From UHGV virus genome UHGV-0189653: a stretch of 51,563 bases of DNA. One strand, given 5' to 3'. Both the position numbers and the translations under genes were made by a program. Below, piece after piece: positions 1-51,563 of this stretch. This DNA comes from a virus. Each line of letters starts with the position of its first letter. Position 1 is the first letter of the stretch. The notes under the pieces are model-generated. The model made no database searches and had not been told where the DNA came from. It saw nothing but the letters and a program-made list of their open reading frames with translations.

Positions 1-396
1 ATGATCACTTACGTGACCTGTGATGACGTTGATAATGCGTTTGGGAACGCCTGGACGAGTGAGAACGCTAAAAATAAAGCTGTTTTAATGGCTAATGCCT
101 GGCTTAATGGCTTCAACCTGAAAATTAACCCATCCCGTATTCCGGAAGAGGTAAAACTTGCGGGAGCATATGCAGCCAGAATTGCCTCATTCGGTAAGTT
201 GTTTCAGCAGAAAAATGATTCTGGCGTTGTTATCAGTAAAGCCGTGTCGGCTGACGGGGTCAGTGTATCGAAATCATTTTCTGAGTTGCCAGCAAACAGC
301 ACTGCATTGCTTGAACCCGATTTACAGCTTGCGATAGCACTGCTGAAACCGTACGGACTTAGTCGCTCACAAGTCAGGGTTGTGAGGGGGGGATAA
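1..396 (+). CDS. head-tail connector/adaptor protein (HK97 gp6-like class)
   Basis: 131-aa ORF, first of four small genes immediately upstream of the major tail gene; family assignment from N-terminal sequence and module position only. Confidence 0.45.
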   Translation: MITYVTCDDVDNAFGNAWTSENAKNKAVLMANAWLNGFNLKINPSRIPEEVKLAGAYAARIASFGKLFQQKNDSGVVISKAVSADGVSVSKSFSELPANSTALLEPDLQLAIALLKPYGLSRSQVRVVRGG

Positions 397-779
397 TGGG
401 GCTTCGTGAAGAGATTCAGTCAGAGGTTGCCGCTGCTTTTGATGAGGATTTAGCGGACGCCGTGAGTGATTTTTCTGGTTCTTACGTTACGCACCGGCAC
501 TGGGATCCTGTGACGGAAACTGGCGGCGAATCCACCGCAATCTATACCGGGCGAGGCGTGTTGACACGTTATAAGCTGGGCAGAATTGATGGGATTAATA
601 TTTTGCATGGTGACCTTAAATTAACCGCTCTGGTATGCGAGGTTACGGATAAACCAGCTGTCGACCATATTATTGAGATTTATGATCCTGTATCAAGGCA
701 GTTACAACGATACGAGGTAATTACAGCAAGTGTAGATCCTTCCGCATCAGTTTACTCTATCCAGTTAAGGAGAGCGTAA
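396..779 (+). CDS. head-tail joining / head closure protein
   Basis: 127-aa ORF; start overlaps previous stop (TAATG at 393-397); position in head-tail joining block. Confidence 0.4.
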   Translation: MGLREEIQSEVAAAFDEDLADAVSDFSGSYVTHRHWDPVTETGGESTAIYTGRGVLTRYKLGRIDGINILHGDLKLTALVCEVTDKPAVDHIIEIYDPVSRQLQRYEVITASVDPSASVYSIQLRRA

Positions 780-1160
780 ATGGCAAAGGCATGGGATATA
801 GAACCGTCAATATTTGCCGGGATGATTGAGGAAAATGTAGGGCTGAAGATTCGCTACATCGCTATGCAGATTCTTACTGCTATTGATATTGCTGCTCCGG
901 TTGATACCGGACGTTTCAGAAATAACAACCTGGTGTCGTTACAGCATCCCGATTTTGGTATATCTGATAACGTGGATCCGAACGGTACGATTGCTGTTCA
1001 GCGTGGGATCGGGGTTATTTCGAAAGCTGCAAATTACGGGGTTATTTATATCCAGAATAACCTTCCTTATGCAGAGGCTCTTGAAAACGGTCATTCACAA
1101 CAAGCGCCAACTGGCGTGTATGCCAACGCTTTTCATGGTGTTTTACAGGCTTACAAATGA
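780..1160 (+). CDS. tail-component protein (HK97 gp10-like class)
   Basis: 126-aa ORF abutting neighbours with no gap; typical size and position for neck/tail completion protein. Confidence 0.4.
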   Translation: MAKAWDIEPSIFAGMIEENVGLKIRYIAMQILTAIDIAAPVDTGRFRNNNLVSLQHPDFGISDNVDPNGTIAVQRGIGVISKAANYGVIYIQNNLPYAEALENGHSQQAPTGVYANAFHGVLQAYK

Positions 1161-1549
1161 AGTTTACTGAAATCAGAAATACGGTTATTTCCAGAATGAC
1201 GGCACAGACGATTATTGATGGAAAAGACGTATTGTATCCGAACGGGCCAACGTTCGATCCTTCCGGTAAGTTAATCTGGGCGCGGTTAAGTAATATTCCC
1301 GGGCAGGCTGGAGTTAATGAAATTGGCGCGGGGCCGGTTGTTTATCGCACGGGGATAATCATTATTCAGTTATTTGTCCCCGCAGGTTCTGGTTCAAAAC
1401 TCATTACTGAGACAGCCGATAATTTGCGGGAACTGTTTGAGTTTCAGGATGACGATCGTCTCAGTTACCAGGCTGTTTCCTCAATAGCCGTCGGCGAAAA
1501 GAATGGCTGGTTCCAGCTTAATCTTCAAATTCCATATCGCGCGCTCTAG
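1157..1549 (+). CDS. tail terminator / tail tube-head joining protein (gpU-like role)
   Basis: 130-aa ORF directly preceding major tail protein gene; 4-nt overlap with upstream gene. Confidence 0.4.
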   Translation: MKFTEIRNTVISRMTAQTIIDGKDVLYPNGPTFDPSGKLIWARLSNIPGQAGVNEIGAGPVVYRTGIIIIQLFVPAGSGSKLITETADNLRELFEFQDDDRLSYQAVSSIAVGEKNGWFQLNLQIPYRAL

Positions 1550-1575
1550 CGCAATTAATGACATAGGAGGCTCCT

Positions 1576-2538
1576 GTGAGTTCAGGTGCAAAGGTTATCT
1601 CGGCATTTATCCGGGAGACGGTTGCAGGCACTACGCCAGCAAGTGGTGACTGGAGTTTATTAAAACGCACAAGCTGGGGAGTAAAACCCACCCAGAATAA
1701 AGGCGAAAATAATGAGATTGGTGGCTCCCGGATGGCTCAGGGGGCGACGCCTGGCACTGTGGATGTCGGCGGTGATGTTGGTACCAAATTTCGCTGGGGT
1801 CAACATGATGATTTTCTTGCATCCTGTTTCGGCGCGGAATGGTCAGGCGATTCTCTGACAATGGGGAATGAGCGAATAACATTTTCTCTGGCGACCTATG
1901 CGTCCGATGTCGGAATTGCCTCTGTCGTCAGAGGAGCGCAGGTTGGCTCATGGAAAATGCAGATCCCTAACGACGGCGATATTACAGCGACCGTAACCTT
2001 TGCCGGACTGGACTGGGAATCAAAGGCCGATGATACGAATTTTATCAAAGGCGAACCTGTGGATAGTGCAGGAAAGCTACGTTATTCGTTTAAGGAGGTT
2101 TCAGCAGTAAGCCTGAATGGTGTTGCCGGAGGTAACGGTTTTTGTATCGACAGTTTTGATATTCAGTTCGATAACAAACTCCAGACACAGCGTTGTATCG
2201 GGACTGGCTCGCCTTATGCAGGAGCAAATATTCCGACTACTTTTACACCGTCCGGTACGGTGACGCTTTCATGGTCTAAAGCCGCGTGGGAAATCTGGAG
2301 TAAAACACTGACTGGAGAAACAGTTCCGTTCAGCTTCACGCTTTCGAATGGAGAGGGGGCATACACTTTCAGTTTCCCGAAGGTTCAGGTGTCAGGTGAA
2401 TGGCCTGATGGGGGTAATAGCGACATTATCCAGGTTCAATTGAGCATTACCGCAGCAGATGAAGCACCTACGATAACCAGAAAAAAAAATTCCCCGGCTG
2501 CCGTGATCGCAAAAGCCAGTGCTGAGGCGATTAGTTGA
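1576..2538 (+). CDS. major tail (tube) protein with probable C-terminal Ig-like extension
   Basis: 320-aa ORF with RBS AGGAGG upstream, located immediately before the G/GT chaperone pair; Thr/Ser-rich beta-type C-terminal domain. Confidence 0.65.
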   Translation: MSSGAKVISAFIRETVAGTTPASGDWSLLKRTSWGVKPTQNKGENNEIGGSRMAQGATPGTVDVGGDVGTKFRWGQHDDFLASCFGAEWSGDSLTMGNERITFSLATYASDVGIASVVRGAQVGSWKMQIPNDGDITATVTFAGLDWESKADDTNFIKGEPVDSAGKLRYSFKEVSAVSLNGVAGGNGFCIDSFDIQFDNKLQTQRCIGTGSPYAGANIPTTFTPSGTVTLSWSKAAWEIWSKTLTGETVPFSFTLSNGEGAYTFSFPKVQVSGEWPDGGNSDIIQVQLSITAADEAPTITRKKNSPAAVIAKASAEAIS

Positions 2539-2586
2539 TTTTCCGTTATTCCTCCTGTGGTACTGCCCTACAGGGGGACGCATTGA

Positions 2587-3048
2587 ATGAGGTTATGGAT
2601 GTTTATTCTTAATCAGAAAATTATCATTGGTGGAGAACGCTGGTTTACGCCAATGAAGGACTTAAAACCTGTAGACGGGTTAAAACTGTTGGTGGCAAGC
2701 AGCGATAACGATCAGTATCGCTCCCGTAATGCATTAATCCGTCGCCACATTGAGAAAATGGATGCCAGTTTGCACGTCGGAACGAAGGAGTTTGATATTT
2801 CAAAGGTTTCCGAGGTGGATTCTGTTGATGATTTACTCATTGATAATGCCGCTCGTTATCTGCTGAAAGACTGGAAAGGGGTTGGTGAACTGGTTAATGG
2901 TGTTGAGGTTGCACTGGAATATACGGCAGAACGAGGGATCGCGCTGCTCAAGCAGAATCCAGAGTTGTACTGGCAGATCCTTGCAGAAGCAGCCAGCATC
3001 GCCCAGGGTAAAGAGCAGCAGAAGCAGGATACGATAAAAAAGCCATAG
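2587..3048 (+). CDS. G: tail assembly chaperone (gpG analogue)
   Basis: 153-aa ORF between major tail and tape measure genes, ending just after slippery heptamer A AAA AAG (3036-3042); start codon uncertain (ATG 2587, 2599 or 2653). Confidence 0.6.
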   Translation: MRLWMFILNQKIIIGGERWFTPMKDLKPVDGLKLLVASSDNDQYRSRNALIRRHIEKMDASLHVGTKEFDISKVSEVDSVDDLLIDNAARYLLKDWKGVGELVNGVEVALEYTAERGIALLKQNPELYWQILAEAASIAQGKEQQKQDTIKKP

Positions 3049-3356
3049 CTGCCCAGCGGTGGTTATCGGAGTTCGGGGGAGAAAGGGGGGAAAAGGCAAG
3101 ATGGAAGCGAGAAAAACTCAGGTTGCCACCGATACCGGAACCAGAAATAGACCCGGTGCTTAAGGAGTTGTTGTACGCCTATTCGGTAATATCCCGTGCC
3201 CGACGTTATGCTGGAATGGCTGGGGTGCCTTTGCCTTTATCTCTGACAGAGATAAATGAATATTTAGCCACTCATCCGGTATTGATTGAGCGCGATGAAT
3301 TTGAAGCAGTGATCTTTGCACTGGATGACCAGTATTTTCAGGAGCAGTGTGTGTAG
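2587..3356 (+). CDS. G-T: tail assembly chaperone G-T fusion made by programmed -1 ribosomal frameshift
   Basis: Slippery site A AAA AAG at 3036-3042 in the G frame; the -1 frame is open from 3036 through the ORF ending at 3356 (I translated 3036-3123 and found no stop); conserved arrangement in lambda-like tail modules. Confidence 0.6.
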
Positions 3357-3479
3357 TTGTTAATTACGTACACTCTGTTACAGAGATGTGATGGTGTCTT
3401 TAATTAAATCGATGATGCTCCTGGAGAAAAGCATTGCGTGGCCTCGTAATCGCTATATCTACTATTATGTCGCCTGAAA

Positions 3480-3499
3480 CCCACTTCGGTGGGCTTTTT
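3480..3499 (+). terminator. short GC hairpin with UUCG tetraloop plus T-tract between G/T and tape measure gene
   Basis: cccac-ttcg-gtggg followed by cttttt immediately upstream of tape measure RBS. Confidence 0.4.
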
Positions 3500-3519
3500 G
3501 TTGTCTGGAGTTTTAATAA

Positions 3520-6500
3520 ATGGCAGAGCAAACCTCGCGTCTCGCAATAATTATTGATAGCACTGGAGCAAAAAATAATGCTGACAATCTGACCTCCTCA
3601 TTAGTCAAAATGACGCAGGCCGGGGAAACTGCTGCAAATAGCGCAGGGAAAGTGACTAAGGCAACAGAAGATGAGAAGAACGCGCTCGCAAAATTAAAAG
3701 CAGCTATTGATCCAGTTGGTGCCGCAATTGATACTGTCGGTCGACGCTATTCTGAATTAAAGAAATTTTTCGATAAAGGGCTTATTGATAAAGAAGAATA
3801 TGAATTTCTTGTCCGTAAACTTAATGAAACCACAGAGGAATTGAGCGGGGTTGCGCAAGCGCAGAGAGAAGCCGAGAAGGCCGGAAAACTTGCTGCCGCC
3901 CAGCAGGAATCGCAGGCTCAGGCCTTTCAAAGAATGCTGGACAAGATCGACCCTCTGGTTGCGGCGCTAAGAAATCTTGAACAACAGCAGGATGAACTTA
4001 ATGCTGCGTTTGCATCCGGGAAAATAAATGGTTCTCAGTTTGAGAATTATAGCCGAAAAATACAGGAAACACGGCGAGAGCTTACCGGAGAGGCTCAGGC
4101 AGAGCGAGAAGCAGCAAAAGCGCATGATGAACAGGTTGCTGCTTTGCAACGTCTGATTGCTCAACTTGACCCTGTCGGAACTGCTTTTAATCGTCTGGTA
4201 GAACAACAGAAACAGCTCAATGAAGCAAAAGCTAAGGGGATGCTCTCTCCTGAAATGTATGAGGAACTTTCTGGAAAACTTCGTGCTATGCGGAGTGAGC
4301 TTGAGGTTACTCAATCTCAATTAAGCAAAACCGGAATGTCGGCAAAACAAACGGCTTTTGCTATGCGCATGTTGCCTGCACAAATGACGGATATTGTTGT
4401 TGGGTTGTCCACTGGTCAGTCGCCTTTTATGGTGTTAATGCAGCAGGGCGGCCAGCTAAAAGATATGTTCGGTGGGATTGGCCCGGCGATCAAAGGTGTT
4501 GGTTCTTATGTGCTGGGATTAATTAATCCTTTTACCCTGGCCGCAGCAGCCGTTGGCGTCTTAGGGCTGGCTTACTATAAAGGCTCTCAGGAGCAGGACG
4601 AATTTAATAAATCTCTTATTCTTACCGGAAATCAGTTGGGGACAACCAGCGGGCAATTGGCCGATATAGCTCAACGTGCCGGGAATGCGGCTGATTCGAC
4701 AACTGGCGCTGCGGCGGCAGTATTAAACCAGCTTGTGCGTTCGGGAAAGGTAGCGAGCAGTTCGCTGGAGCAAGTGACGACAGCGATAGTAAAAACGAGC
4801 GAAGTAACAGGAATATCAACCGAACAACTGGTTAATGACTTCAATGAAATTGCAAAGGATCCTGTCAGTGCCATATCAAAACTTAATGATCAGTACCATT
4901 TTCTGACAATTGCGACTTATAACCAGATTAAGGCGCTACAGGATGAAGGGAACCAGCAGGAGGCCGCCCGCATTGCGACAGAAGCATACTCATCCTCAAT
5001 GATCCAGCGCACCAACCAGATTAAAGAAAATCTTGGTTATCTTGAGACTGCATGGAAAGCTGTCGCAGACTCCGCAAAATGGGCATGGGATTCCATGCTG
5101 GATATTGGCCGTGAGGCCTCCCTTGATCAAAAAATCTCAGATGTTCTCCGTCAAATTGATGAAATAGAAAAAAATACCCGACCCGGAGTTTTCGGGTTAG
5201 GTGGCATTGGAGATGGCGGAGCTCAAAATAAAAGGCTGGCACGATTAAAGCAGCAATTGGGCGTACTTCAAGCAGAAAAAATTGCTCAGGACGTACTAAA
5301 TTCATCAATAAACGATTACAACAAGCGACAACAGGAAGGAATTGAACTCAGACAGAGAGCAGATGCCTTTTCAAAACAATATCAGACCCGGGAGCAGCAG
5401 AGAGCTAGTGAACTTGCAAAACTGGAAAAACTAAAGAGTCAGTATTCAAAGGAAGAATATAATAATCTTATCGCTCAAATAAATGAGCGTTATAAAGATC
5501 CAAAGCAACCAAAGGCGAAAGGTTATTCGGATGATGCTGCCCAACGAATGATTGATCATCTGAATCAACAGAATGCGTTACTAAGTTCACAAACTGAATT
5601 AACCGTTAAATTAAGTTCCTCTGAACAGGAACTGGTTAAGTGGCGTCAGCAGATTGCCGACCTGGAGTCACGACCGTCATCGAAATTAACCAAGGATCAG
5701 AAATCGCTTCTCTTACACCGGGAAGAAATAACCGCGTTGATGGAGAAAAATGTTGCGATTGAAAAAAATAACAGGCTAATCAAGGAATCCGCCGAAATAG
5801 CTGCATGGCGTGATTCATTGCAGGCTTCGATTGATAATCGTCAACAGGGGTATGATATTCAGATTGCTGGTTATGGGGTTGGCGATAAAAATCAGCAACG
5901 CCAGCAGGAATTACTGCGGATTGAACGTGAATATAACAATCAGCGTCTGCAACTTGAACGTGACTATGCAGATAAATCCCGTGGGATGTCAAATCATGTT
6001 TTTCAGGAGAAAATGCAGGCTCTGAATGATGCTCTGGAACGAGAAAAAGAAATTGTCAGACAGAAAAACGAGCAGCTCGATATTCAGGCAGGAGACTGGG
6101 TTAGTGGTGCCTCCCAGGGATTCAATAACTGGCTGGATGACACTAAGGATATCAGTGAGCAGATAAAATCAACCACGACTCAGATGTTTGATGGAATGAC
6201 CGATGCGCTGGGTGATTTTGTCACGACAGGCAAGGCAAATTTTCGTTCTTTCGCTACTTCCGTGATTTCGGATCTTAGTCGAATAGCATTAAAGGCTTCA
6301 ATTACTCGGATTTTCGACAGCATTAGTAACAGTTCTTCGGGGGGGATTTTAGGAACTATCGGGAGTGCTATTAGTAAATTTATTCCGAATGCAAAGGGCG
6401 GTGTTTATGAGTCTCCGTCATTGAACACGTATTCGAACGGTATTTATGATTCCCCGCAATTTTTTGCTTTTGCAAAAGGGGCTGGTGTTTTTGGTGAGGC

Positions 6501-6753
6501 TGGTCCGGAAGCCATTATGCCATTAACACGAACTTCCGATGGTTCTCTTGGTGTCAGAGCTATTAATAGTAAAAGTGGTAATGGAGGCGGAGATATTACC
6601 TATGCCCCTGTATACCAAATCACTATTCAAAATGACGGCCAGAATGGAGAGATTGGCCCTCAGGCAATAAAAGCACTTATGGGGATGGTTGATCAGCGGG
6701 TGCAGGGCAATCTGTTAAATATGCGACGTGATGGGGGAATGTTAAGTGGCTAA
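3520..6753 (+). CDS. H: tail tape measure protein
   Basis: 1077-aa ORF, coiled-coil rich N-terminal half, hydrophobic central segment, position between G/T and M. Confidence 0.9.
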
Positions 6754-7084
6754 TACGGAAGAATTTCACTGGTTACCAGAGGATGGAATGAAAACAGAAA
6801 ATAAACCATCGATAAAAACTGTAAGATTTGGCGATGGTTATGAGCAACGAAGTCCAAATGGACTTAATCATTCTCTGCGCGTTTTCACCTGTGATTTCAA
6901 AGTTGAGGCGAATGAACGTGATTCATTTGAAAAATTTTTAGCCCGGCATGAAGGCTATAAATCTTTTTTTTGGCGCCCGCCTGGTATTAACAGAAAAATC
7001 AGAGTGGTGTGTCGAACGTGGTCAGCGACAGAACATATCACCTATACCGATTTTTCGTGTCAGTTTGACGAAGTGGTGATCTGA
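6746..7084 (+). CDS. M: minor tail protein M
   Basis: 112-aa ORF ([14 protein letters not shown]...) matching lambda gpM in size, sequence and order. Confidence 0.85.
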
Positions 7085-7782
7085 TGCAGGACATACAACA
7101 GGAAACGCTGAATGAATGCATTCGTGCGGAGCAGTCGGCCAGCGTGGTGCTCTGGGAAATCGACCTGACCGAGGTAGGCGGGGATCGCTACTTTTTCTGC
7201 AATGAGCAGAACGAGAAAGGAGAGTCTGTCACCTGGCAGAGTCGGCAGTATCAGGCCTATCCCATTCAGGGGAGTGGATTTGAGATGAACGGCAAAGGTG
7301 CCAGTGCAAGGCCAACGCTGAAAGTCTCTAATCTGCACGGCATGGTCACCGGGATGGCGGAAGACCTGCAGAGTCTGGTCGGCGGAACGGTGGTCAGGCG
7401 TAAGGTTTACGCCCGTTTTCTGGATGCGGTGAACTTCGTCAACGGAAACAGTGACGCCGATCCGGAGCAGGAGGTGATCAGCCGCTGGCGTATTGAGCAG
7501 TGCAGCGAACTGAGCGCGGTCAGTGCCTCCTTTGTACTGTCCACGCCGACGGAAACGGACGGCGCTGTTTTTCCGGGGCGCATCATGCTTGCTAATACCT
7601 GCACCTGGACCTATCGCGGTGATGAGTGCGGTTATCACGGTCCGGCGGTCGCGGATGAATATGACCAGCCGACATCCGAAATCACGAAGGATAAATGCAG
7701 CAAATGCCTGAGTGGCTGTAAGTTCCGCAATAATGTCGGCAACTTTGGCGGCTTCCTTTCCATTAACAAACTTTCGCAGTAA
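7084..7782 (+). CDS. L: minor tail protein L
   Basis: 232-aa ORF with C-terminal cysteine cluster (CTWTYRGDECGYHGP ... CSKCLSGC) typical of lambda gpL. Confidence 0.85.
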   Translation: MQDIQQETLNECIRAEQSASVVLWEIDLTEVGGDRYFFCNEQNEKGESVTWQSRQYQAYPIQGSGFEMNGKGASARPTLKVSNLHGMVTGMAEDLQSLVGGTVVRRKVYARFLDAVNFVNGNSDADPEQEVISRWRIEQCSELSAVSASFVLSTPTETDGAVFPGRIMLANTCTWTYRGDECGYHGPAVADEYDQPTSEITKDKCSKCLSGCKFRNNVGNFGGFLSINKLSQ

Positions 7783-7787
7783 ATCCC

Positions 7788-8531
7788 ATGACAGAGACAG
7801 AATCAGCGATTCTGGCGCACGCCCGGCGATGTGCGCCAGCGGAGTCGTGCGGCTTCGTGGTGAGAACGCCGGAAGGGGAAAGATATTTTCCCTGCGTGAA
7901 TATCTCCGGTGAGCCGGAGGCGTATTTCCGGATGGCTCCGGAGGACTGGCTGAGTGCAGAAATGCAGGGAGAGATTGTGGCGCTGGTCCACAGCCACCCC
8001 GGTGGTCTGCCCTGGCTGAGTGAGGCCGACCGGCGGCTGCAGGTGCAGAGTGATTTGCCGTGGTGGCTGGTCTGCCGGGGGGCGATTCATAAATTCCTCT
8101 GTGTGCCGCATCTCACCGGGCGGCGCTTTGAGCACGGGGTGACGGACTGTTACACGCTGTTCCGGGACGCTTACCATCTGGCGGGAATTGAGATGCCGGA
8201 TTTTCATCGCGGGGATGACTGGTGGCGTCACGGCCAGAATCTCTATCTTGACAATATGGAGGCAACGGGTTTTTACCGTGTCCCACTGACAGAGGCGCAG
8301 CCTGGCGACGTGCTGCTGTGCTGTTTTGGTTCATCGGTGCCGAATCATGCCGCCATTTACTGTGGCGACGGCGAGCTGCTGCACCATATTCCTGAACAAC
8401 TGAGTAAACGAGAGAGGTACACCGACAAATGGCAGCGACGCACACACTCCCTCTGGCGTCACCGGGCATGGCACGCATCTGCCTTTACGGGGATTTGCAA
8501 CGATTTGGCCGCCGCATCGACCTTCGTGTGA
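7788..8531 (+). CDS. K: tail assembly protein K (MPN/JAB + NlpC/P60 domains)
   Basis: 247-aa ORF with HSHP metalloprotease-type motif (ALVHSHPGG) and C-terminal cysteine peptidase-like region; lambda gpK-like. Confidence 0.85.
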   Translation: MTETESAILAHARRCAPAESCGFVVRTPEGERYFPCVNISGEPEAYFRMAPEDWLSAEMQGEIVALVHSHPGGLPWLSEADRRLQVQSDLPWWLVCRGAIHKFLCVPHLTGRRFEHGVTDCYTLFRDAYHLAGIEMPDFHRGDDWWRHGQNLYLDNMEATGFYRVPLTEAQPGDVLLCCFGSSVPNHAAIYCGDGELLHHIPEQLSKRERYTDKWQRRTHSLWRHRAWHASAFTGICNDLAAASTFV

Positions 8532-9076
8532 AAACGGGGGCTGAAGCCATCCGGGCACTGGTCACACAGCTCCCGGCGTTTCGTCAGAAACTGAATGAGG
8601 GCTGGTATCAGGTGCGCATTGCCGGGCGTGATGCAGGCGAAAACGAATTATCAGCCCGTCTTAATGAGCCGTTGAAAAATGGTGCCGTGATCCACATCGT
8701 TCCGCGTCTTGCGGGAGCAAAAAGTGGCGGTGTGTTTCAGGCGGTGCTGGGTGCGGCGCTGATTGCAGTGGCGTGGTGGAACCCTGCAGGCTGGCTGGGA
8801 GCTGCGGCTTTATCGGGCATGTATGCTGCGGGGGCCAGTATGATCCTTGGCGGTGTGGCGCAGATGCTGGCACCGAAAGCCAGAACTCCCCGTACACAGA
8901 CAACGGATAACGGTAAGCAGAACACCTATTTCTCCTCACTGGATAACATGGTTGCCCAGGGCAATGTTCTGCCTGTTCTGTACGGTGAAATGCGCGTGGG
9001 GTCGCGGGTGGCTTCTCAGGAGATCAGCACGGCAGACGAAGGGGACGGTGGTCAGGTTGTGGTGATTGGTCGCTGA
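8429..9076 (+). CDS. I: tail tip assembly protein I
   Basis: 215-aa ORF (MAATHTLPLASPGMARICLYGDLQRFGRR ... GGQVVVIGR) closely resembling lambda gpI; overlaps end of K. Confidence 0.8.
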   Translation: MAATHTLPLASPGMARICLYGDLQRFGRRIDLRVKTGAEAIRALVTQLPAFRQKLNEGWYQVRIAGRDAGENELSARLNEPLKNGAVIHIVPRLAGAKSGGVFQAVLGAALIAVAWWNPAGWLGAAALSGMYAAGASMILGGVAQMLAPKARTPRTQTTDNGKQNTYFSSLDNMVAQGNVLPVLYGEMRVGSRVASQEISTADEGDGGQVVVIGR

Positions 9077-9136
9077 GGCAAAATGTTTTATGTGAAACCG
9101 CCTCCGGGCGGTTTTGTCGTTTATGGAGCGTGAGGA

Positions 9137-12619: not shown

Positions 12620-12637
12620 ATTTTATAACCCAGAACG

Positions 12638-32927: not shown

Positions 32928-32942
32928 TTGCCGGAGGCACCT

Positions 32943-39772: not shown

Positions 39773-39775
39773 TTA

Positions 39776-40252
39776 ATGCAGACACTTAATTCCCAGCGTA
39801 AAGCTTTCCTTGATATGGTGGCATGGTCAGAAGGAACAGATAACGGACGGCAGAAAACCAGAAATCACGGTTATGATGTTATTGTCGGTGGCGAACTGTT
39901 CACTGATTACTCCGATCACCCCCGCAAACTTGTCACGCTAAATCCGAAACTCAAATCAACAGCCGCTGGACGTTACCAGCTTCTTTCACGCTGGTGGGAT
40001 GCCTACCGCAAGCAACTTGGCCTGAAAGATTTTTCTCCAGAAAGTCAGGATGCTGTAGCGCTGCAGCAGATTAAAGAGCGTGGCGCTTTGCCGATGATTG
40101 ATCGCGGTGATATCCGTCAGGCTATCGACCGTTGCAGCAATATATGGGCTTCACTGCCGGGCGCTGGTTATGGTCAGTTCGAGCATAAGGCTGACAGTCT
40201 GATTGCAAAATTCAAAGAAGCTGGCGGAACGGTCAGAGAGATTGAGGTATGA
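39776..40252 (+). CDS. R: endolysin R (lytic transglycosylase)
   Basis: 158-aa ORF with [42 protein letters not shown], matching lambda R. Confidence 0.95.
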
Positions 40253-40713
40253 GCAGAGTAACCGCGATTATCTCCGCTCTGGTTATCTGCATCGTCGTCT
40301 GCCTGTCATGGGGTGTTAATCATTACCGTGATAACGCCATCGCCTACAAAGAACAGCGCGACAAAAATGCCAGAGAACTGAAGCTGGCGAACGCGGCAAT
40401 TACTGACATGCAGATGCGTCAGCGTGATGTTGCTGCGCTCGATGCAAAATACACGAAGGAGTTAGCTGATGCGAAAGCTGAAAATGATGCTCTGCGTGAT
40501 GATGTTGCCGCTGGTCGTCGTCGGTTGCACATCAAAGCAGTCTGTCAGTCAGTGCGTGAAGCCACCACCGCCTCCGGCGTGGATAATGCAGCCTCCCCCC
40601 GACTGGCAGACACCGCTGAACGGGATTATTTCACCCTCCGGGAACGACTGGTAATGATGCAGGCCCAACTTGAAGGTGCTCAGCAATACATAACCGAGCA
40701 GTGTTTAAAGTAA
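40249..40713 (+). CDS. Rz: i-spanin Rz
   Basis: 154-aa [24 protein letters not shown]... with N-terminal TM and coiled coil; lambda Rz-like. Confidence 0.9.
40469..40654 (+). CDS. Rz1: o-spanin Rz1 lipoprotein (embedded in Rz, +1 frame)
   Basis: 61-aa ORF with lipobox (LVVVGC) and proline-rich [15 protein letters not shown], matching lambda Rz1. Confidence 0.85.
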
Positions 40714-44352: not shown

Positions 44353-45447
44353 ATGAGCAGACCGGACTGGGGGGCGTTGCAGCAGGAGTATATTGCTGAA
44401 TACACCCGCTCCGGTATATCTCCGGTGGCATGGTGTGAAGCAAGGGGACTGAATTACGCAACAGCCCGTCGTTACATCAAAAAAACTCCGAAAAATGCGC
44501 AGACAGAAATGTGCAAAACTGCGCAAAAAAGTGCGCAGAAAAAATCTGCGCAGACTGCACAAAAGCGGAACGAAAAATCTCAGGAAAAAAAGCCAGTATT
44601 CGATGCGGGCCTGAATGAGGGCGACGCGGAGGAATTTTCGTTCTGTCCCGATGAATTCGGCATTTCTGACCAGCAGGCTAAGTTTGCGATGCTTGTTGCT
44701 CAGGGTAAAAAGCCGACAGAGGCGTACCGACTAGCCGGTTATGAGGGGCAAGGTGCGACAGCTAATAGCAACGCCAGTCGTATGCTTAGAAATGCCAGGG
44801 TTTTTCGCGCTATCAGCTACTTCCGCAATCAGTACCAGAAACGCTATACCGCAGACCTGGATTTACTAGTGAGTCAGTTGATGGCCATTGTCCTGGCCGA
44901 CCCCAATCAGCTTGCACAATTTCGCCGTGTTAACTGCCGTTATTGCTGGGGCGAGAATCATCTCTACCAGTGGCGCGATATAGCAGAATTCGACAAGGCA
45001 GCGGCGCAGGCTTCCAGAGATGGCAAACCCGAACCGGAATATGGAGGCCTCGGCTTTGTTGATAACGCCATACCCAATCCGGACTGCCCGAAGTGCTGCG
45101 GTGAGGGAACGGGACAGCTTTATATGGCTGATACCACTCTGCTTGATGGGGATGCGCGGCAATTATATGCAGGGGCAAAATTCGGAAAATTCGGCGTTGA
45201 GATCCTGCTGGAGGATAAGGCTGCCGCCCGGCGTGAATTGTTGCGTTTGCTTTCTGCTGGCGGGGCTTTATGTGCAGATAAGCGGCTACAGGAACTGGAA
45301 ATTGAACGGCGCAGAATGGAAAACCAGAAGCTGCGCAAAGAGATCGAAACGGTGGAAGATAATGAACATCCCCAGCCTGTGGCGATCAATATTAATGTGG
45401 TTGATGCCAGAGTAAGGAGTGATGAAGATGATCTCTCCGACGCTTAA
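44353..45447 (+). CDS. terS: terminase small subunit (atypically long, with CxxC...CxxC region)
   Basis: 364-aa ORF directly upstream of and overlapping the large terminase; N-terminal HTH (ISPVAWCEARGLNYATARRYIKK), central Terminase_2-like segment, Cys pairs. Confidence 0.6.
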   Translation: MSRPDWGALQQEYIAEYTRSGISPVAWCEARGLNYATARRYIKKTPKNAQTEMCKTAQKSAQKKSAQTAQKRNEKSQEKKPVFDAGLNEGDAEEFSFCPDEFGISDQQAKFAMLVAQGKKPTEAYRLAGYEGQGATANSNASRMLRNARVFRAISYFRNQYQKRYTADLDLLVSQLMAIVLADPNQLAQFRRVNCRYCWGENHLYQWRDIAEFDKAAAQASRDGKPEPEYGGLGFVDNAIPNPDCPKCCGEGTGQLYMADTTLLDGDARQLYAGAKFGKFGVEILLEDKAAARRELLRLLSAGGALCADKRLQELEIERRRMENQKLRKEIETVEDNEHPQPVAININVVDARVRSDEDDLSDA

Positions 45448-46729
45448 TGTGCCTCAGGCGCGATTTCTTTCAATGCCCCATAAATTTAAAGCCTATATTG
45501 CTGGTTTTGGCTCGGGCAAAACATGGGTTGGGTGTGGCGGCATATGCAAGGGGATTTGGGAGCATCCAGGTATAAATCAGGGATATTTTGCGCCAACGTA
45601 TCCCCAAATTCGCGATATTTTTTACCCTACAGTGGAAGAAGTTGCTGCTGACTGGGGATTGAACGTAAAAATTAATGAGGGAAATAAAGAGGTTCACTTT
45701 TATTACGGACGCCAGTATCGGGGAACCACTATCTGCAGATCGATGGAGAAGCCACAAACGATCGTCGGTTTCAAAATTGGTAATGCGTTGGTGGATGAAC
45801 TGGACATTTTGCCGAAGGAAAAAGCCAGAACGGCGTGGCGCAAGATAATTGCACGTATGCGTTATAAGATTGATGGACTTCGCAACGGTATTGACGTTAC
45901 AACCACGCCGGAAGGATTCAAATTTGTCTACGAGCAGTTTGTTAAAGCCGTGCGTGAAAAAACAGAGCTGGCCTCACTGTATGGTCTGGTGCAGGCATCT
46001 ACTTTCGATAATGAAAAGAACCTGCCAGCAGATTACATTCCTTCGCTTCTTGAATCATACCCTCCAGAGCTGATTAAAGCCTATCTTCGAGGACAGTTTA
46101 CTAACCTGACAAGTGGTACTGTTTACCATCAGTTTGACCGGAAACTGAATAATTGCGAAGAAGTGGAGCAGCCAGGGGAGCCGATTTATATTGGGATGGA
46201 TTTTAACGTTGGAAAGATGGCGGGAATCGTCCATGTGCTGCGTTTGGGGCTTCCATGTGCGGTAACTGAAATCATCAATGCCTACGATACGCCGGATATG
46301 ATCCGCATCATTAAAGAACGCTTCTGGCTGTATGATGGGAATGATTACCGGAAAGTGAGGGAAATTTATATTTATCCAGATGCTTCCGGGGATTCCAGAA
46401 AATCAAGTAACGCAAGTACGACGGATATAGCCCAGCTTAAGCAGGCTGGTTTTAACGTTGTGGTGAACAGCTCGAACCCGCCAGTAAAAGATCGCGTTAA
46501 CTCAATGAATGCAATGTTCTGCAATGCCAATGGTGAGCGTCGCTATAAAGTTAATGTGAAGCGTTGCCCGTTATATGCCGAATCTCTGGAGCAACAGGTC
46601 TGGGATGAGAAGGGGGAGCCTGATAAAAAATCTGGCAATGATCACCCGAATGATGCCGGAGGTTATTTCATCGTTAAGCAATTCCCTATTGTCAAACCGA
46701 CCGGAAGAGTCACATCACTTCGGATTTAA
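45419..46729 (+). CDS. terL: terminase large subunit
   Basis: 436-aa ORF with Walker A (AGFGSGKT), nuclease-domain acidic residues; followed by portal. Confidence 0.9.
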   Translation: MMKMISPTLNVPQARFLSMPHKFKAYIAGFGSGKTWVGCGGICKGIWEHPGINQGYFAPTYPQIRDIFYPTVEEVAADWGLNVKINEGNKEVHFYYGRQYRGTTICRSMEKPQTIVGFKIGNALVDELDILPKEKARTAWRKIIARMRYKIDGLRNGIDVTTTPEGFKFVYEQFVKAVREKTELASLYGLVQASTFDNEKNLPADYIPSLLESYPPELIKAYLRGQFTNLTSGTVYHQFDRKLNNCEEVEQPGEPIYIGMDFNVGKMAGIVHVLRLGLPCAVTEIINAYDTPDMIRIIKERFWLYDGNDYRKVREIYIYPDASGDSRKSSNASTTDIAQLKQAGFNVVVNSSNPPVKDRVNSMNAMFCNANGERRYKVNVKRCPLYAESLEQQVWDEKGEPDKKSGNDHPNDAGGYFIVKQFPIVKPTGRVTSLRI

Positions 46730-46731: not shown

Positions 46732-48138
46732 ATGGCTGATATATCAACACCCAACCTCGACTATAACGATATGCTGGAGGCGTGGGATATTAACGACGCA
46801 CTGATGGGCGGTACGCTTGAAATGCGCAGGCAGGGGGAAAATTATCTCCCAAAATGGCCTAACGAAGATGAAGACGCTTATAAAAAACGCCTGTCTGTGG
46901 CTACGCTACTTCCTGTGTATGAAGAAAGCATCAAGCAAAATATTGGGCGCATATTTGCAGAGCCGACAGTATTGAGTGAGGAAACGCCGGCAAAAATCAG
47001 GGAATATGCAGAAAATATCGACATGGAGGGGAGCCGACTGGATGTGTGGGCGCAGCAATTTTTCAGCCTCGCATTTCAGTATGGTGTGGCACATGCGCTG
47101 GTGGACTATCCACGAACGGATATGAAAGAGATTCGGACAAAAGCCGATGAAAACGCGGCCGGTGGTCGTCCGTACGTTACGATGCTGAATCCACGCCAGG
47201 TTATTGGATGGAAATCGAAAGTTGAAAAAGGGAAAGTTGTTCTCACTGATTTGCGTATAAAAGAGGTCATCATTATTGATGGTGATGATTTCGGGCAGAA
47301 GAAGGTGGAGCAGATCCGCCATATTATGCCCCGTCGAGTTGAAATTTATCGACGTAGCGAAGGCACTAATGGCGAATCTGTCTGGACGCTTCATGAGTCA
47401 TGGAATACCAGCCGTGATGATATTCCTCTGGTAACACTGTACACGAAGAAAACAGGATTTATGCGTGGTACACCGCCATTGCTTAATCTTGGCTTGCTGA
47501 ATATCAAGCACTGGCAAAGCCAGAGCGAGCAGGACAATATTCTTCATGTTGCCCGCGTTCCATTGCTGGTGGCCTACGGGCTGGACAGGAATGAAGAACT
47601 GACGGTTGGTGCATCCACCGCTACGATTTTTGAGGACAGAACAAAAAATGGCCTCGAATATGTTGAACATAGTGGCGCAGCGATAGAATCTGGCGAAACA
47701 TCACTTGAGAAGCTGGAAAATCAGATGCGTCATGCCGGCGCTAAACTTCTGCGTGCTGAAAATACATCCACCAAATCTGTTGATCAGACTAATGAAGAGC
47801 GAATGCAGGAAAACTCGCCGCTTTATACAATGGCGAACTCCCTCGAAGATGCCCTCGATAATATTCTCCAGATAATGGCGGAATGGATCGGAGAGAGTTG
47901 CGGTGGCAATGTGGATGTGCGCACTGAACTGGATGTATCTGCCCAGGTGTTTGACTCATCCTCCGCGCTGGCTGTTCAGTCATTGCGTCAGGGCGGTGAT
48001 ATACGTCAGATTGATGCGGTTCGGGTGTTGCAGGCGTTGAAATTTATCGATCAGGATTCCCGTCCAGAGGAAGTGATCGATGAATTAAAAAATCAGAGTG
48101 TAATGCTGATGGAAATCAATGATGCAAACCGTGAATGA
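46732..48138 (+). CDS. portal protein
   Basis: 468-aa ORF immediately after the large terminase and before the head morphogenesis gene. Confidence 0.8.
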   Translation: MADISTPNLDYNDMLEAWDINDALMGGTLEMRRQGENYLPKWPNEDEDAYKKRLSVATLLPVYEESIKQNIGRIFAEPTVLSEETPAKIREYAENIDMEGSRLDVWAQQFFSLAFQYGVAHALVDYPRTDMKEIRTKADENAAGGRPYVTMLNPRQVIGWKSKVEKGKVVLTDLRIKEVIIIDGDDFGQKKVEQIRHIMPRRVEIYRRSEGTNGESVWTLHESWNTSRDDIPLVTLYTKKTGFMRGTPPLLNLGLLNIKHWQSQSEQDNILHVARVPLLVAYGLDRNEELTVGASTATIFEDRTKNGLEYVEHSGAAIESGETSLEKLENQMRHAGAKLLRAENTSTKSVDQTNEERMQENSPLYTMANSLEDALDNILQIMAEWIGESCGGNVDVRTELDVSAQVFDSSSALAVQSLRQGGDIRQIDAVRVLQALKFIDQDSRPEEVIDELKNQSVMLMEINDANRE

Positions 48139-49234
48139 ACGGCTGCGTGATGAATCAATTGCTCATGCAGTCTGGATATCCCGCTATAGCACTGGCGTGG
48201 CTGCCAGAATGGTGAAAATACTGAATGACAGCGATGCGGAACTTACTGCTCGCCTGCTGATAGCACTGGACAGCCTCGATCCAGGTAGTTTTACCGTTAA
48301 GCGCCTGGAGTCACTTCTGGCGAGCGTCAGAGAGGTTAACCGCACTGCTATTAACAGCATGTTTACCAGTCTCTCCGGAGAGCTGAACGAGCTGGCAATT
48401 TATGAGGCTGGTTATCAGTTAAGTCTGTTTGATTCTATGCTACCTGATTTTGTTGCTGATGTTCACCCTCTGGTTGGTATCTCTCCTGATGCACTTTATG
48501 CCGCTGCAATGGCGCGACCATTCCAGGGACGACTGCTCAGTGAGTGGGCCTCAGATCTTGAGGCGGATCGGCTCAGACGCATAACAAATACAGTGCGTCA
48601 GGGTTTTTTGCTGGGGGATACCAATGAGCAGATCGCAAGAAAAATTCGGGGACATGTCAGTAAGGGATTTCAGGATGGTGCATTGCAGATGAGCCGGGCT
48701 AATGCGGCCAGCATTGCAAAAACAGCGGTTGGACATCTTGCTGCTACTGCCCGTGAGAGTTTTGCCAGCGCGAATAATGATTTGATTAAGGGTAAGCAAT
48801 GGTTATCAACGCTTGATAATCGTACTACGCCACAATGTCGAATCAGGGATCGCCTCAAATATACGCTGAATAATAAACCTGTAGGTCACAGCGTGCCTTA
48901 TTTGCAGGGGCCGGGAAAAATTCATTTCTGCTGCCGCTCAACGGAAACGTTCATTCTGAAATCAGCGAAGGAACTGGGTATTGATGTTCGCGATATTTCC
49001 CCGGCTGAGCGGGCCAGCATGGATGGCGTGGTGGCCGGAGATACAACCTACAGGGAATGGTTTTTGCGTCAGCCTTACACCAGACAAAAACAGATTGTGG
49101 GGGAAACCCGAGCAAAGCTGATTCGGGATGGTGGTATGTCGCCAGATGAATTTTACACCGATAAAGGCGAATGGCTGACGCTGAAGCAGCTCCGTGAGCG
49201 TGATGCACAGGTATTCAGAAAAGCAGGGATTTAA
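48119..49234 (+). CDS. head morphogenesis protein (Mu F / SPP1 gp7-like minor head protein)
   Basis: 371-aa ORF following portal; central region GKQWLSTLDNRTTPQCRIRDR typical of this class. Confidence 0.75.
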   Translation: MMQTVNERLRDESIAHAVWISRYSTGVAARMVKILNDSDAELTARLLIALDSLDPGSFTVKRLESLLASVREVNRTAINSMFTSLSGELNELAIYEAGYQLSLFDSMLPDFVADVHPLVGISPDALYAAAMARPFQGRLLSEWASDLEADRLRRITNTVRQGFLLGDTNEQIARKIRGHVSKGFQDGALQMSRANAASIAKTAVGHLAATARESFASANNDLIKGKQWLSTLDNRTTPQCRIRDRLKYTLNNKPVGHSVPYLQGPGKIHFCCRSTETFILKSAKELGIDVRDISPAERASMDGVVAGDTTYREWFLRQPYTRQKQIVGETRAKLIRDGGMSPDEFYTDKGEWLTLKQLRERDAQVFRKAGI

Positions 49235-49254
49235 ATAAATCATTTATTACAACA

Positions 49255-49278
49255 GGCTACCTTCGGGTGGCCTTTTTT
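49255..49278 (+). terminator. UUCG-tetraloop hairpin plus T6 between head morphogenesis and scaffold genes
   Basis: ggctacc-ttcg-ggtggcc (7 bp incl. one G-U) followed by TTTTTT. Confidence 0.5.
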
Positions 49279-49338
49279 ATTGCTGCGATCCGGATGGTGA
49301 GCAGCGTAACTGTCGGAAGACTTAAACCAGGTACTAAT

Positions 49339-50103
49339 ATGAAACTGAAAACGGTCGAGATTAACGGAAAACAATACGCAGAAATTGATACTGCTGGCCT
49401 GCCAGTTTATGTGCACGACGATGGTAAAGAAATTGGCTTCGATGCACCGCTGGCGACAAAAAAAATTACAGAGCTTAATGGCGAGGCAAAAAATCATCGC
49501 CTGGCTAAAGAAGCTGCAGAGGAAAAACTGGCTAAGTTTGCCGCTATCGAAGACCCGAAGAAGGCGATCGAGGCACTGGAAATGCTGTCAAAAATCGACC
49601 AGAAAAAGCTGCTCGATGCGGGACAGGTTGACCAGGTTAAGGCAGAAATTACGAAAAATTTTCAGCAGCAATTAGATGAAGAAAAGCAACGCTCTCAGAT
49701 GCTGGAGAAGCAGCTTTACGATTCTATGATTGGCGGTAGTTTTGCGGGTTCAAAATATATTGCCGATAAAATTGCGATCCCGGCAGATTTATTACAAGCC
49801 CGCTTCGGGCAGGCATTCAAAGTGGAAGAAGGGAGGATCGTTGCTTATGACGCTTCCGGCAACAAAATTTATTCCCGCGCGAAGCCTGGCGAACTGGCGC
49901 AGTTTGATGAGGCGCTGGAGTTCCTTGTCGAAAATTACCCTCAGAAAGACTACATCCTGAAAGCCAGTGGCAACAATGGCGGCGGCTCCCGTCCGACACA
50001 GCATGATATTGGTCAGAAAACGATGAAACGCTCTGCTTTTGATGCACTGGATGTTGCAGGTAAGCAAAACGCATTGAAAGACGGTATCACAATCGTTGAT
50101 TAA
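49339..50103 (+). CDS. putative scaffolding protein
   Basis: 254-aa acidic, coiled-coil-rich product from ATG 49339 (MKLKTVEINGKQ), immediately upstream of capsid gene. Confidence 0.55.
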   Translation: MKLKTVEINGKQYAEIDTAGLPVYVHDDGKEIGFDAPLATKKITELNGEAKNHRLAKEAAEEKLAKFAAIEDPKKAIEALEMLSKIDQKKLLDAGQVDQVKAEITKNFQQQLDEEKQRSQMLEKQLYDSMIGGSFAGSKYIADKIAIPADLLQARFGQAFKVEEGRIVAYDASGNKIYSRAKPGELAQFDEALEFLVENYPQKDYILKASGNNGGGSRPTQHDIGQKTMKRSAFDALDVAGKQNALKDGITIVD

Positions 50104-50201
50104 CACATTTGTCAGCTTCCGGATGGGAGCTGGTGTCAGGGCTGGATAGCTCATTACTCCATCTATTCACAATTACGCAAATTTTTAAGGAATATTTAAT
50201 T

Positions 50202-51341
50202 ATGGCTGGAAATACCCTGACCGGGTTGATCCCGACTATTTATACCGCCCTGGATGTTGTATCCCGTGAGCAGGTAGGTTTTATCCCTGCGGTAGCAAAA
50301 AACGCAAAAGCTGACGCCGCAGCAAAAGATCAGACGGTAACCGCGCCAGTTGCGCCTGAGGCGAAAACCGAAGATATCGTACCGGGGCCGTCAGCTCCGA
50401 ATACCGGTGATCAAAATATTGGCACTGTTGATGTAAAAATTACTAAATCCAAAATGGCACCGGTTAAATGGAATGGTGAAGAACAACTGGCTCTTGGCCC
50501 TTCAGGGACTTACAACACCATTCTGGCTGATCAGTTCAAGCAGGCTTTTCGCGCCCTTGCAAACGAGGTTGAGGCTGATCTTGGTGCGTTGTATTTCGGT
50601 GCTTCCCGCGCCGTGGGAACCGCAGGGACAACGCCGTTTGGTGTTAAAGATGATCTTTCTGATGCTGCTCTGGCTCGTCAGGTTCTGGAGGATAACGGCG
50701 CACCGACAACCGATCTGCAGATGGTGCTTGGCTCCACTGCCATTGCTAATTTGCGCGGAAAACAGTCTGTATTGTTTAAAGTGAATGAATCCGGCACTGA
50801 ACAGCTACTGCGTGAGGGCGTGTTGGGGCGTCTGGAGGGATTCAATATTCACAGTTCGGCAGGTGTGAAACGAGCGCCAAAGGTTGCTGCAACTGGTTAT
50901 CTCGTGAATGGAGAGAAAAAAGAAGGCGATGTTCTTATTTCCATTGATACTGGTTCGGGGAGTATTTCTGCAGGTCAGATTGTTACGTTCGCTGGTGATC
51001 CGAATCAGTATGTTGTGGCAGCAGCGACCAGCAATCTGATTACTCTTGCAGCGCCCGGACTGCGTCAGGATCTGGCCGATGATACTGCCATCACAGTTGT
51101 TGGGGCCTTTACTGCAAATATGGCGTTTGATCGCAACGCGTTTCTGCTGGCATCCCGTACTCCGGCAATGCCGGAAGGTGGCGATAATGCTGATGATGTA
51201 ATGAATGTTACGGACCCGATTTCAGGGATTACGTTCCAGATTGCACTGTATCGTCAGTATCGCCAGGTGCGCTATGAAGTTGGACTGGCATGGGGTGTTT
51301 CATCAGTGAAGCCGGCACATGGTTGTCTGATTCTTGGTTAA
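50202..51341 (+). CDS. major capsid protein
   Basis: 379-aa product from ATG 50202 (RBS AAGGA); follows scaffold; followed by strong terminator. Confidence 0.7.
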   Translation: MAGNTLTGLIPTIYTALDVVSREQVGFIPAVAKNAKADAAAKDQTVTAPVAPEAKTEDIVPGPSAPNTGDQNIGTVDVKITKSKMAPVKWNGEEQLALGPSGTYNTILADQFKQAFRALANEVEADLGALYFGASRAVGTAGTTPFGVKDDLSDAALARQVLEDNGAPTTDLQMVLGSTAIANLRGKQSVLFKVNESGTEQLLREGVLGRLEGFNIHSSAGVKRAPKVAATGYLVNGEKKEGDVLISIDTGSGSISAGQIVTFAGDPNQYVVAAATSNLITLAAPGLRQDLADDTAITVVGAFTANMAFDRNAFLLASRTPAMPEGGDNADDVMNVTDPISGITFQIALYRQYRQVRYEVGLAWGVSSVKPAHGCLILG

Positions 51342-51351
51342 ACATTCAAAC

Positions 51352-51371
51352 GGGGCTTCGGCCCCATTTTT
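51352..51371 (+). terminator. intrinsic terminator after major capsid gene
   Basis: ggggc-ttcg-gcccc hairpin followed by ATTTTT. Confidence 0.6.
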
Positions 51372-51383
51372 AATGGGGGGCAT

Positions 51384-51560
51384 ATGGCCGGATTAACTAA
51401 AGAGCAAAGAGCACAGCGTGAAGCCGCACAAAAAACGCAAATTGAGTTAGTGGTTATGGTGACCGATTATCAGATGTTTCCCGGCGCACCAACTATCGCT
51501 AATGTTCATCCTGATGAAGTTGACAACTGGAAGGCTATGGGCTGGAAAACTCAGGAGTAA
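51384..51560 (+). CDS. small head-associated protein (58 aa), hypothetical
   Basis: ORF by manual translation (MAGLTKEQRAQREAAQKTQIELVVMVTDYQMFPGAPTIANVHPDEVDNWKAMGWKTQE); below ORF-track cut-off. Confidence 0.35.
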   Translation: MAGLTKEQRAQREAAQKTQIELVVMVTDYQMFPGAPTIANVHPDEVDNWKAMGWKTQE

Positions 51561-51563
51561 CAC

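Follow-up and report, generated by a model that had tools for sequence, protein, structure and literature searches.

In Escherichia coli K-12, the Rac prophage is a defective element of about 23 kb that resides at ttcA. Not every element of this type is so reduced, and KingRac, a full-length, inducible and particle-forming Rac-type phage which integrates at the same gene, was reported to be active and transmissible with a size of 46.8 kb (Frazao et al., 2019; PMC6731689). Here, we focus on UHGV virus genome UHGV-0189653, a stretch of 51,563 nucleotides that was analyzed at its full length and is referred to below as the window. We consider it highly probable that the window is a complete, intact temperate siphovirus of E. 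coli, a lambdoid member of the Rac family, recovered from a metagenome as a closed circular assembly of the excised attP form and linearized by rule, with headful packaging as its most probable mode of DNA encapsidation. The likeness to KingRac is drawn from the description of that phage.

The window belongs to the Rac family by its attP core, which is identical to ttcA sequence, by the adjacent genes for IntR and XisR, and by the synteny of its early region. The latter comprises RalR/RalA, RecT, RecE, RacC, KilR, SieB, RacR and YdaS/T/U/V, with 99.2-99.9% identity to annotated Rac-type prophages. K-12 Rac uses the same site and has the att core, IntR/XisR and the early genes in common with the window; trkG, ynaK (ParB-like), ydaY, lom and the N-terminal domain of stf are also shared. 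However, K-12 Rac has lost its packaging and head genes and most of its tail genes, all of which are intact in the window, and the window additionally carries sitABCD. What is displayed here is the intact form of Rac as opposed to the defective relic of K-12.

In strain 64.1, the interval from ttcA to uspF holds a full-length Rac-type prophage according to the Prokaryotic Genome Annotation Pipeline (PGAP). The genes run in the order intR, xisR, ralR, recT, recE, racC, kilR, sieB, racR, ydaS/T/U/V, Q-like antiterminator, lysis genes, trkG, ParB-like gene, terS, terL, portal, MuF-like gene, scaffold, P22-type coat and connectors, and finish with a lambda-type tail, J, lom, stf and sitDCBA. The window carries the same genes, once each. 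The prophages of strains 64.1 and N31 are collinear with the window, at 99.2-99.9% identity from int to the head genes and 97-98% over the head-tail and tail genes, and, in the region from the nin-like genes to lysis (33527..40713), E. coli N31, N41 and LR-46 match the window over 7 kb at 100% identity. Rac-type prophages in complete genomes differ from the window in that they are integrated (attL/attR) and depart from it in the tail tip, fibre or nin segments. Two tail genes, those for the tail tube and the M-like protein, are frameshifted in strain 64.1 and intact in the window.

More distant likenesses are confined to parts of the genome. Parts of the early and late regions are about 90% identical in Rac-SA53 (KU052037; from Jobling's Rac-like LT-II prophages), which bears toxin cargo in place of the cargo set of the window. 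Phages of the lambda and phage 21 type share the module order, the tail genes H, M, L, K, I, J, lom and stf, and a late region with Q, holin, lysozyme and Rz, and sitABCD lies beside the tail fibres in phage 21, Perceval and ev017 as it does here. In contrast to lambda, the window has no lambda cos, and its head and packaging genes are unrelated (Terminase_6, DUF4055 portal, MuF, P22-type coat). For phages of the genera Jerseyvirus, Kagunavirus and Dhillonvirus, it is only the packaging enzyme that is related; these are virulent, measure about 42-45 kb and have no integration module.

Nothing in this is new, as Rac-like phages that are full-size and active have been described already, and so have integration at ttcA and the sitABCD cargo. 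Near-identical prophages occur in hundreds of sequenced E. coli genomes. The finding is an ordinary one, and the current understanding of these phages is unchanged. Its use lies mainly in bookkeeping, in that it allows the window to be handled as a single phage genome, complete and apparently functional.

The end-to-start junction and the genome unit

Position 1 of the window is the A of an ATG that opens a 131-aa gene (1-396, + strand). Its product is the head-tail adaptor Ad1 (phrog_493, E=7e-49), and the same start codon is used in the PGAP annotation of homologous lysogens. At the other end the window reads ...CAGGAGTAACAC. The last open reading frame (ORF) there encodes 58 aa (51384-51560) and lies 3' of the major capsid gene; its TAA stop occupies 51558-51560 and is followed by a spacer, CAC (51561-51563). 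An AGGAG at 51553-51557 is contained in the last codons of this ORF and, when the two ends are joined, comes to stand 6 nt ahead of position 1, where it serves the Ad1 gene. The 58-aa ORF matches phrog_1514, a family without known function, and a role in the head is suggested by its position alone.

A probe of 1,361 nt spanning the joined ends was searched for in 5,426 complete E. coli genomes and is contiguous in 728 of them, in many at 100% identity. The end and the start also abut in three records of the phage collection (in ON470595 at record positions 44604|44605) and in 59 IMG/VR contigs. In the prophage of strain 64.1, an independent lysogen, window 40249-51563 corresponds to 23479-34793 and window 1-12177 to 34794-46964. 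The junction falls at 34793|34794 with zero bases missing or duplicated.

A search across the window found neither a terminal repeat nor an internal duplication, and therefore every module is present once. The window also holds neither attL nor attR and no host flank. It is exactly one genome unit of 51,563 bp. A start that falls precisely on the first base of a gene would be met at about 0.15% of positions by chance, and the circle must therefore have been rotated by rule. Thus, the opening point is not a physical end of the DNA; the circle was evidently linearized by rule at the start codon of the adaptor gene. Since the gene order crosses the ends of the window, the late operon, and the coupling of the 58-aa ORF to the adaptor gene, are to be read on the joined circle.

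These observations agree with most of what an earlier reading of the letters (the original prediction) had proposed. It had described a window that behaves like a complete, circularly permuted phage genome, with head genes at the 3' end running into head-tail genes at the 5' end, that opens at the start codon of a head-tail connector gene and places AGGAG 6 nt before position 1 once the ends are joined. The unit length, the contig closure described below and the contiguity of the join in 728 genomes bear out the first two claims, while the phrog_493 match and the motif at 51553-51557 confirm the others. The further claim that the window closes 3 nt after a small head gene holds for the spacing, but the head function is not borne out by a match to a family that has no function assigned. 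Its statement that all lambdoid modules are present once holds as well: no duplication was found and all modules are open.

The major capsid gene is also separated from the 58-aa ORF by a terminator-like hairpin (51352-51365, + strand), GGGGCTTCGGCCCC, followed by a run of T. It may be an attenuator that sets the expression ratio of the capsid to the downstream genes.

The attP site and integration at ttcA

The attachment region spans 21150..21414 (no strand assigned) and was delimited through alignment to attL and attR of lysogens, its arm repeats and the empty attB. The alignment on the attR side runs to window position 21356 and that on the attL side begins at 21314. Base-by-base comparison then narrowed the overlap to an exact core of 26 bp, TTGTTCAGGTTGTATTGTTCTTTCTT, at 21314-21339, which is common to attP, attL, attR and attB and identical to the 5' end of host ttcA. 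The sequence on the left side of the core is identical to attR of a lysogen and that on the right side to attL, and the region is for this reason attP. All three counterparts, attL, attR and an empty attB, were recovered from real genomes, the predicted empty site (ttcA-uspF) being contiguous at 100% identity in 2,489 of the 5,426 E. coli genomes.

The arms of the site are those of a lambda-Int-type attP, with repeats that flank the core on both sides and an arm-binding integrase. Copies of the arm repeat, GGGGCAAA, lie at 21171, 21190 and 21201 in the left arm and at 21388 and 21399 in the right arm, and an inverted copy is found next to the core at 21301-21309. Five of the seven matches to GGGGCAAA in the whole window fall in the att arms, with 2.6 expected by chance over the whole window. 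IntR (21415-22650, - strand) has the matching architecture, an Arm-DNA-bind_2 domain (PF12167) joined to a Phage_integrase domain, and XisR (22652-22867, - strand), named from the PGAP annotation of lysogens, adjoins it. The original prediction had recognized arm repeats on both sides of a central segment as attP-like and had proposed a search for the host attB core; the comparison with attL and attR substantiates the former, and the latter led to the intact empty sites counted above.

Integration into the 5' end of a gene raises the matter of how that gene survives. Directly after the core, at 21340-21363, the phage carries a diverged surrogate of the ttcA 5' end, with its own start codon (ATG on the minus strand, 21363-21361) and the first 8 codons; the phage-supplied surrogate totals 50 bp. 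The gene is kept intact in lysogens because the phage supplies this start. The N-terminus of TtcA reads MQENQQITKK in the phage version and MSQNQEISKK in the host, and lysogens are thus predicted to express TtcA with four altered N-terminal residues, presumably from a phage-derived upstream region. The same four changes were reported in connection with K-12 Rac excision (PMC4632033).

Circular contigs and the form of the sampled DNA

The circle was assembled more than once. Contig k119_8526 of ENA assembly ERZ27239694, produced with MEGAHIT, is 51,682 nt long, and its ends map at 100% identity to window positions 5928-11269 and 11151-23608. The two ends overlap by 119 nt, which is the k of the assembler, and 51,682 less 119 is 51,563, the length of the window. 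From this overlap and this closure, it follows that k119_8526 is a closed circular assembly of the window molecule. It was opened inside gene J and not at the start of the window, and the 17.7 kb of it that was sampled (window 5928-23608) is 100% identical. A second contig, 3300039370 of the Joint Genome Institute (JGI; 50,494 nt, also in IMG/VR), opens at about window position 31988, contains both attP and the end-to-start junction, and is 100% identical wherever it was sampled, from window 42720 through the end to 28598. A third, from human gut (ENA ERZ918610 k127_2757; 51,691 nt), was reached by look-up of the tail terminator; it opens at about 16362-16488 and is identical across window 42720 through the end to 16488. 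With the window included, there are four different opening points on one circle. The genome is one unit, its join has neither gap nor overlap, and its closure was seen independently; it is circular or circularly permuted.

Assembly artifacts are a natural concern with such phages, as lambdoid genomes share long, near-identical segments able to mislead assemblers, and modules of two phages might have been stitched together. In fact, the window is a mosaic when set against any single chromosome, its tail tip and fibre being different from those of strains 64.1 and N31. Nevertheless, N31 is collinear with the window from 21314 through 51563 and onward to 8737, the stretches shared with k119_8526 (5928-23608) and with the JGI contig (42720 through the end to 28598) are both 100% identical, and the same combination was obtained from at least three separate samples and assemblers. 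In total, 37,442 window bases are covered by metagenome loci at 100% identity and the remaining bases are collinear in N31 at 99.86%. As each of the joints recurs in independent sequences, a chimera is rejected, and we regard it as scarcely credible. No second phage supplies a module and no host genes flank the window, and neither of the two findings that the original prediction had named as refuting its reading therefore applies.

The strain-specific proteins point in the same direction. Just 3 recorded contigs encode the exact tail-fibre protein; each is metagenomic and has sitA followed by int, the attP arrangement. The exact tail-terminator variant is found in 10 contigs, none longer than 200 kb. 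The tape-measure and sitD proteins are widespread among database contigs. That attP-form DNA was assembled repeatedly, from at least one human-gut metagenome and from others, suggests that phages carrying sitABCD and trkG are active in the gut. Records with names of the kind 'vB_EcoS-...R...' were considered as virion evidence and rejected, as these are prophage predictions from clinical isolates.

A neighboring observation concerns ENA ERZ28572225 scaffold_146 (28,955 nt), in which the block of J, lom, fibre, sitDCBA, attP and int is 99.7% identical to the window and in attP form. The tail-shaft module attached to this block is of lambda type and differs from that of the window (Z, U, V with Big_2, G, T and an 853-aa H). 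The scaffold appears to represent a second phage backbone which shares the host-range and integration end.

The second alternative of the original prediction was a junction of tandem prophages, that is, a double lysogen at ttcA (attL-phage-attP-phage-attR) whose copies were collapsed in assembly or whose DNA was cut across both. Tandem insertion is real at this locus. An attP-type joint is present in 37 of the 5,426 complete genomes; N31, whose prophage is 99.86% identical over 30 kb, has sitA, attP and a truncated int followed by older Rac-type fragments, and strain Jnd12 and a Shigella flexneri chromosome carry chromosomal attP joints as well. None of the complete E. coli genomes, however, has this attP flanked by the sit genes of the window on its left side and by a full int and early region on the other. 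On inspection, the partner in N31 is seen to be a decayed relic, and the joint in Jnd12 to stem from a rearrangement whose left-hand genes differ. Nor would a slice of a chromosome be expected by chance to yield exactly one unit with a base-perfect join, and the strain-specific proteins are never met on contigs longer than 200 kb. The behavior of de Bruijn assemblers adds to this: in a dilysogen, attL and attR would match attP in abundance and a contig should end at the 26-bp core, yet attP is traversed in three assemblies, and the break in the circular one lies inside gene J. Contigs that pass through attP would mean that excised or packaged DNA dominated the samples. A tandem lysogen is accordingly disfavored and, in our view, unlikely as the source of the window.

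The chromosomal joints themselves deserve a note. In N31 (NZ_CM165896.1 2603408-2606000), the sitA-attP joint is followed by a 231-nt 3' fragment of a second integrase gene, a DUF1627 fragment, a frameshifted fragment of a sit permease and then uspF. This interval between sitA and uspF would be the relic of an older Rac-type element in tandem. In Shigella flexneri SFBU1023 (CP182556.1), sitABCD, attP and int are contiguous in the chromosome, as in IMG/VR loci, and unrelated DNA of about 770 nt splits the integrase gene at a point between the equivalents of window 22056 and 22479. The sit island of Shigella thus has the look of a Rac-type fossil that became fixed in the attP configuration.

Even with the excised circle as the preferred reading, several points weigh against it. 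The letters give no direct means of telling virion DNA from excised circles inside cells or from tandem copies that collapsed in assembly, and attP joints do occur within some chromosomes. The gut contig k127_2757, less k, gives 51,564, which is 1 nt above the window even though 37.4 kb of the contig matches the window identically; its terminal overlap is assumed and putative, and the excess is possibly a single-base indel in the unsampled part or the mark of an overlap that is not exactly k. Furthermore, the headful mechanism is deduced from a large terminase subunit (TerL) identity of about 43-51% to phages with termini data and from gene-family composition, not from a pac site, and 51.6 kb of genome plus its terminal redundancy make a large load for a P22-type capsid of T=7. 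Still, the exact unit, the closure of k119_8526 and the attP-form contigs favor the first alternative of the original prediction, an excised or circular phage.

Could the circle be a persistently maintained episome, in the manner of a phage-plasmid or carrier state, and not a transient product of excision, induction or packaging? Closed circles were assembled from several metagenomes, at least one of them human-gut, and the window has stabilization elements of the kind found on plasmids (hok/sok, RalR/RalA and a ParB_N-domain protein) that might stabilize such a state. If this were true, sitABCD and trkG would be plasmid-like mobile cargo. On the other hand, Int, Xis and attP are intact, hundreds of chromosomes carry the phage integrated, and the same integrase, which thousands of lysogens share, adjoins ttcA in every context shown: all ten contexts returned by an integrase look-up, which favors long contigs, are chromosomal attL beside ttcA. 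The window encodes no plasmid replication or ParA partner gene, its ParB_N gene lies in the packaging operon beside terminase, and hok/sok and RalR/RalA also occur in integrated Rac prophages. A search of PLSDB found the attP form in no circular 'plasmid' record. We take an episomal state to be very unlikely, and an excised circle of a temperate phage remains the reading adopted here.

The sampled DNA may have been virion DNA or intracellular circles. The packaging and head set consists of a Terminase_2 small subunit (TerS), a Terminase_6N/6C TerL, a DUF4055 portal, a MuF-like protein, a DUF6651 scaffold and a P22-type coat. The nearest characterized relatives of TerL, at 40-51% identity over about 97% of its length, are those of Kagunavirus, Dhillonvirus and Jerseyvirus phages, with 43.5% identity to Jerseyvirus Kenya-K47. 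PhageTerm analysis and restriction data point to headful packaging with pac initiation in Jerseyvirus K47 (PMC10783031). A search of the window for lambda cosN gave only chance-level matches with 2 mismatches, and the terminase families, Terminase_2 and Terminase_6, are not those of a lambda-type cos system. In a PDB sequence search, TerL had no match and the matches of TerS and portal were uninformative on packaging type. From the relatives of TerL with pac termini, the families of the head and packaging genes, and the absence of lambda cos, it is quite likely that virions carry circularly permuted, terminally redundant DNA through headful (pac) packaging. DNA of this kind would also assemble as a circle, so the circular assembly is consistent with headful packaging but not specific to it.

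Taken together, the life cycle can be pictured as follows. IntR, an arm-binding tyrosine integrase, would recombine the 26-bp attP core with the identical 5' ttcA sequence, and the surrogate start (MQENQQIT replacing MSQNQEIS) would keep the host gene intact in the lysogen. RacR, YdaS and YdaT, regarded as the equivalents of cI, Cro and cII (PMC5917428), would form a switch of that type. Upon induction, IntR and XisR would excise the circle and regenerate attP. Replication would be driven by YdaU and YdaV, and Q-like antitermination would let the genes for lysis, packaging, head and tail be expressed as a single late unit, which spans the point where the window was cut. Finally, the terminase would most probably package concatemers by the headful (pac) mechanism into circularly permuted, terminally redundant virion DNA.

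Gene content and accessory loci

The modules for integration, recombination, immunity, replication, antitermination, lysis, packaging, head, connector, tail and fibre are all open. From position 1, the adaptor gene is followed on the + strand by head closure Hc1 (396-779) and a neck or tail completion gene (780-1160), both assigned from PHROG matches and the PGAP annotation of lysogens, and by the tail terminator (1157-1549; PHROG match, Phage_tail_terminator_5). A lambda-type tail module, identified by Pfam families and PGAP, occupies 1576..13285 on the same strand. It contains the tail tube (1576-2538), the tail chaperone YdaY with an intact -1 frameshift site of the G/GT type (A_AAA_AAG, 3036-3042), the tape measure (3520-6753), the M/L/K/I-like genes (6746-9076), the tip protein J (9137-12619) and Lom (12686-13285). 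The side tail fibre (13350..17108, + strand) has 1,252 aa and, by domain search, ends in a C-terminal Peptidase_S74 intramolecular chaperone. No separate tfa gene follows it in the window. Relatives annotate a 42-aa Caudo_TAP remnant at window-equivalent positions of about 17163-17291, which together with the S74-ended fibre suggests that tfa may have been replaced.

Left of IntR, at the end that is attR-proximal in the prophage, sitDCBA (17505..20954, - strand) encodes an iron/manganese ABC transporter and is a cargo gene set (moron) by comparison with the phage collection and lysogens. Beyond XisR, the early-left region (22967..28574, - strand) holds DUF1187, RalR, RecT, RecE, RacC, YdaE and KilR, with annotation transferred from lysogens at 99.2-99.9% identity. 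On the + strand of this region are the RalA small RNA (22971-23149; Rfam, 225 bits) and SieB (about 28086-28574; transferred from lysogens). Immunity and replication genes occupy 29137..33365 (no single strand; PGAP, PMC5917428): RacR repressor on the - strand (transferred annotation), YdaS (Cro-like) and YdaT (cII-like), with functions after PMC5917428, YdaU and YdaV (replication initiator and DnaC-like loader), DUF1627 and DUF977/Ren-like genes.

The nin-like, late-regulation and lysis region (33527..40713, again without a single strand) was annotated by domain searches, PGAP and Rfam. NinB-like, HNH/DUF1364 and Q-like antiterminator genes (the last ending at 38292) precede holin (39422-39772), lysozyme (39776-40252) and an Rz-like gene (40249-40713). 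Rightward on the + strand are the trkG potassium transporter cargo (40851-42308; PGAP, domain search), a ParB_N protein (42446-43237; domain search), a TAGT/GREB1-related glycosyltransferase-like protein (about 43230-44162; Pfam E=3.8e-35) and a small ORF that extends this region to 44349. The terminase subunits follow at 44353..46729 (profile matches to Terminase_2 for the small and Terminase_6N/6C for the large subunit), and the portal, MuF-like minor head and scaffold genes at 46732..51341, which also includes the P22-type major capsid gene (50202-51341; PGAP, PHROG). A search of the window for tRNA genes found none. The original prediction had seen no host genes, and this is correct insofar as flanking chromosomal genes are absent; it does not extend to the bacterial-type cargo, sitABCD, trkG and lom, or to the 50-bp ttcA surrogate.

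Several accessory loci accompany these modules. In the nin-like region, a BstA-like KilA-N protein (34151-34924, - strand; phrog_6287 E=3e-89, PADLOC BstA E=3e-21) is likely a prophage-encoded defence moron. There are two type I toxin-antitoxin systems, RalR/RalA (22971-23342) and hok/sok (35279-35572; sok at 35279-35449 with an Rfam score of 101 bits, hok ORF at 35447-35572). Beside hok/sok, on the opposite strand, a small DUF1971 ('TehB family') protein is encoded at 35655-36020 (- strand; domain match). Strain N31 and K-12 carry the ParB gene in truncated form, in K-12 as ynaK. Lastly, the ParB_N gene and its neighbor encoding a homologue of TAGT (TET-associated glycosyltransferase; 'GREB1-related' in PGAP) lie directly upstream of terminase (42446-44162, + strand) with no TET/JBP gene nearby, and could be a DNA-modification or packaging-associated pair.

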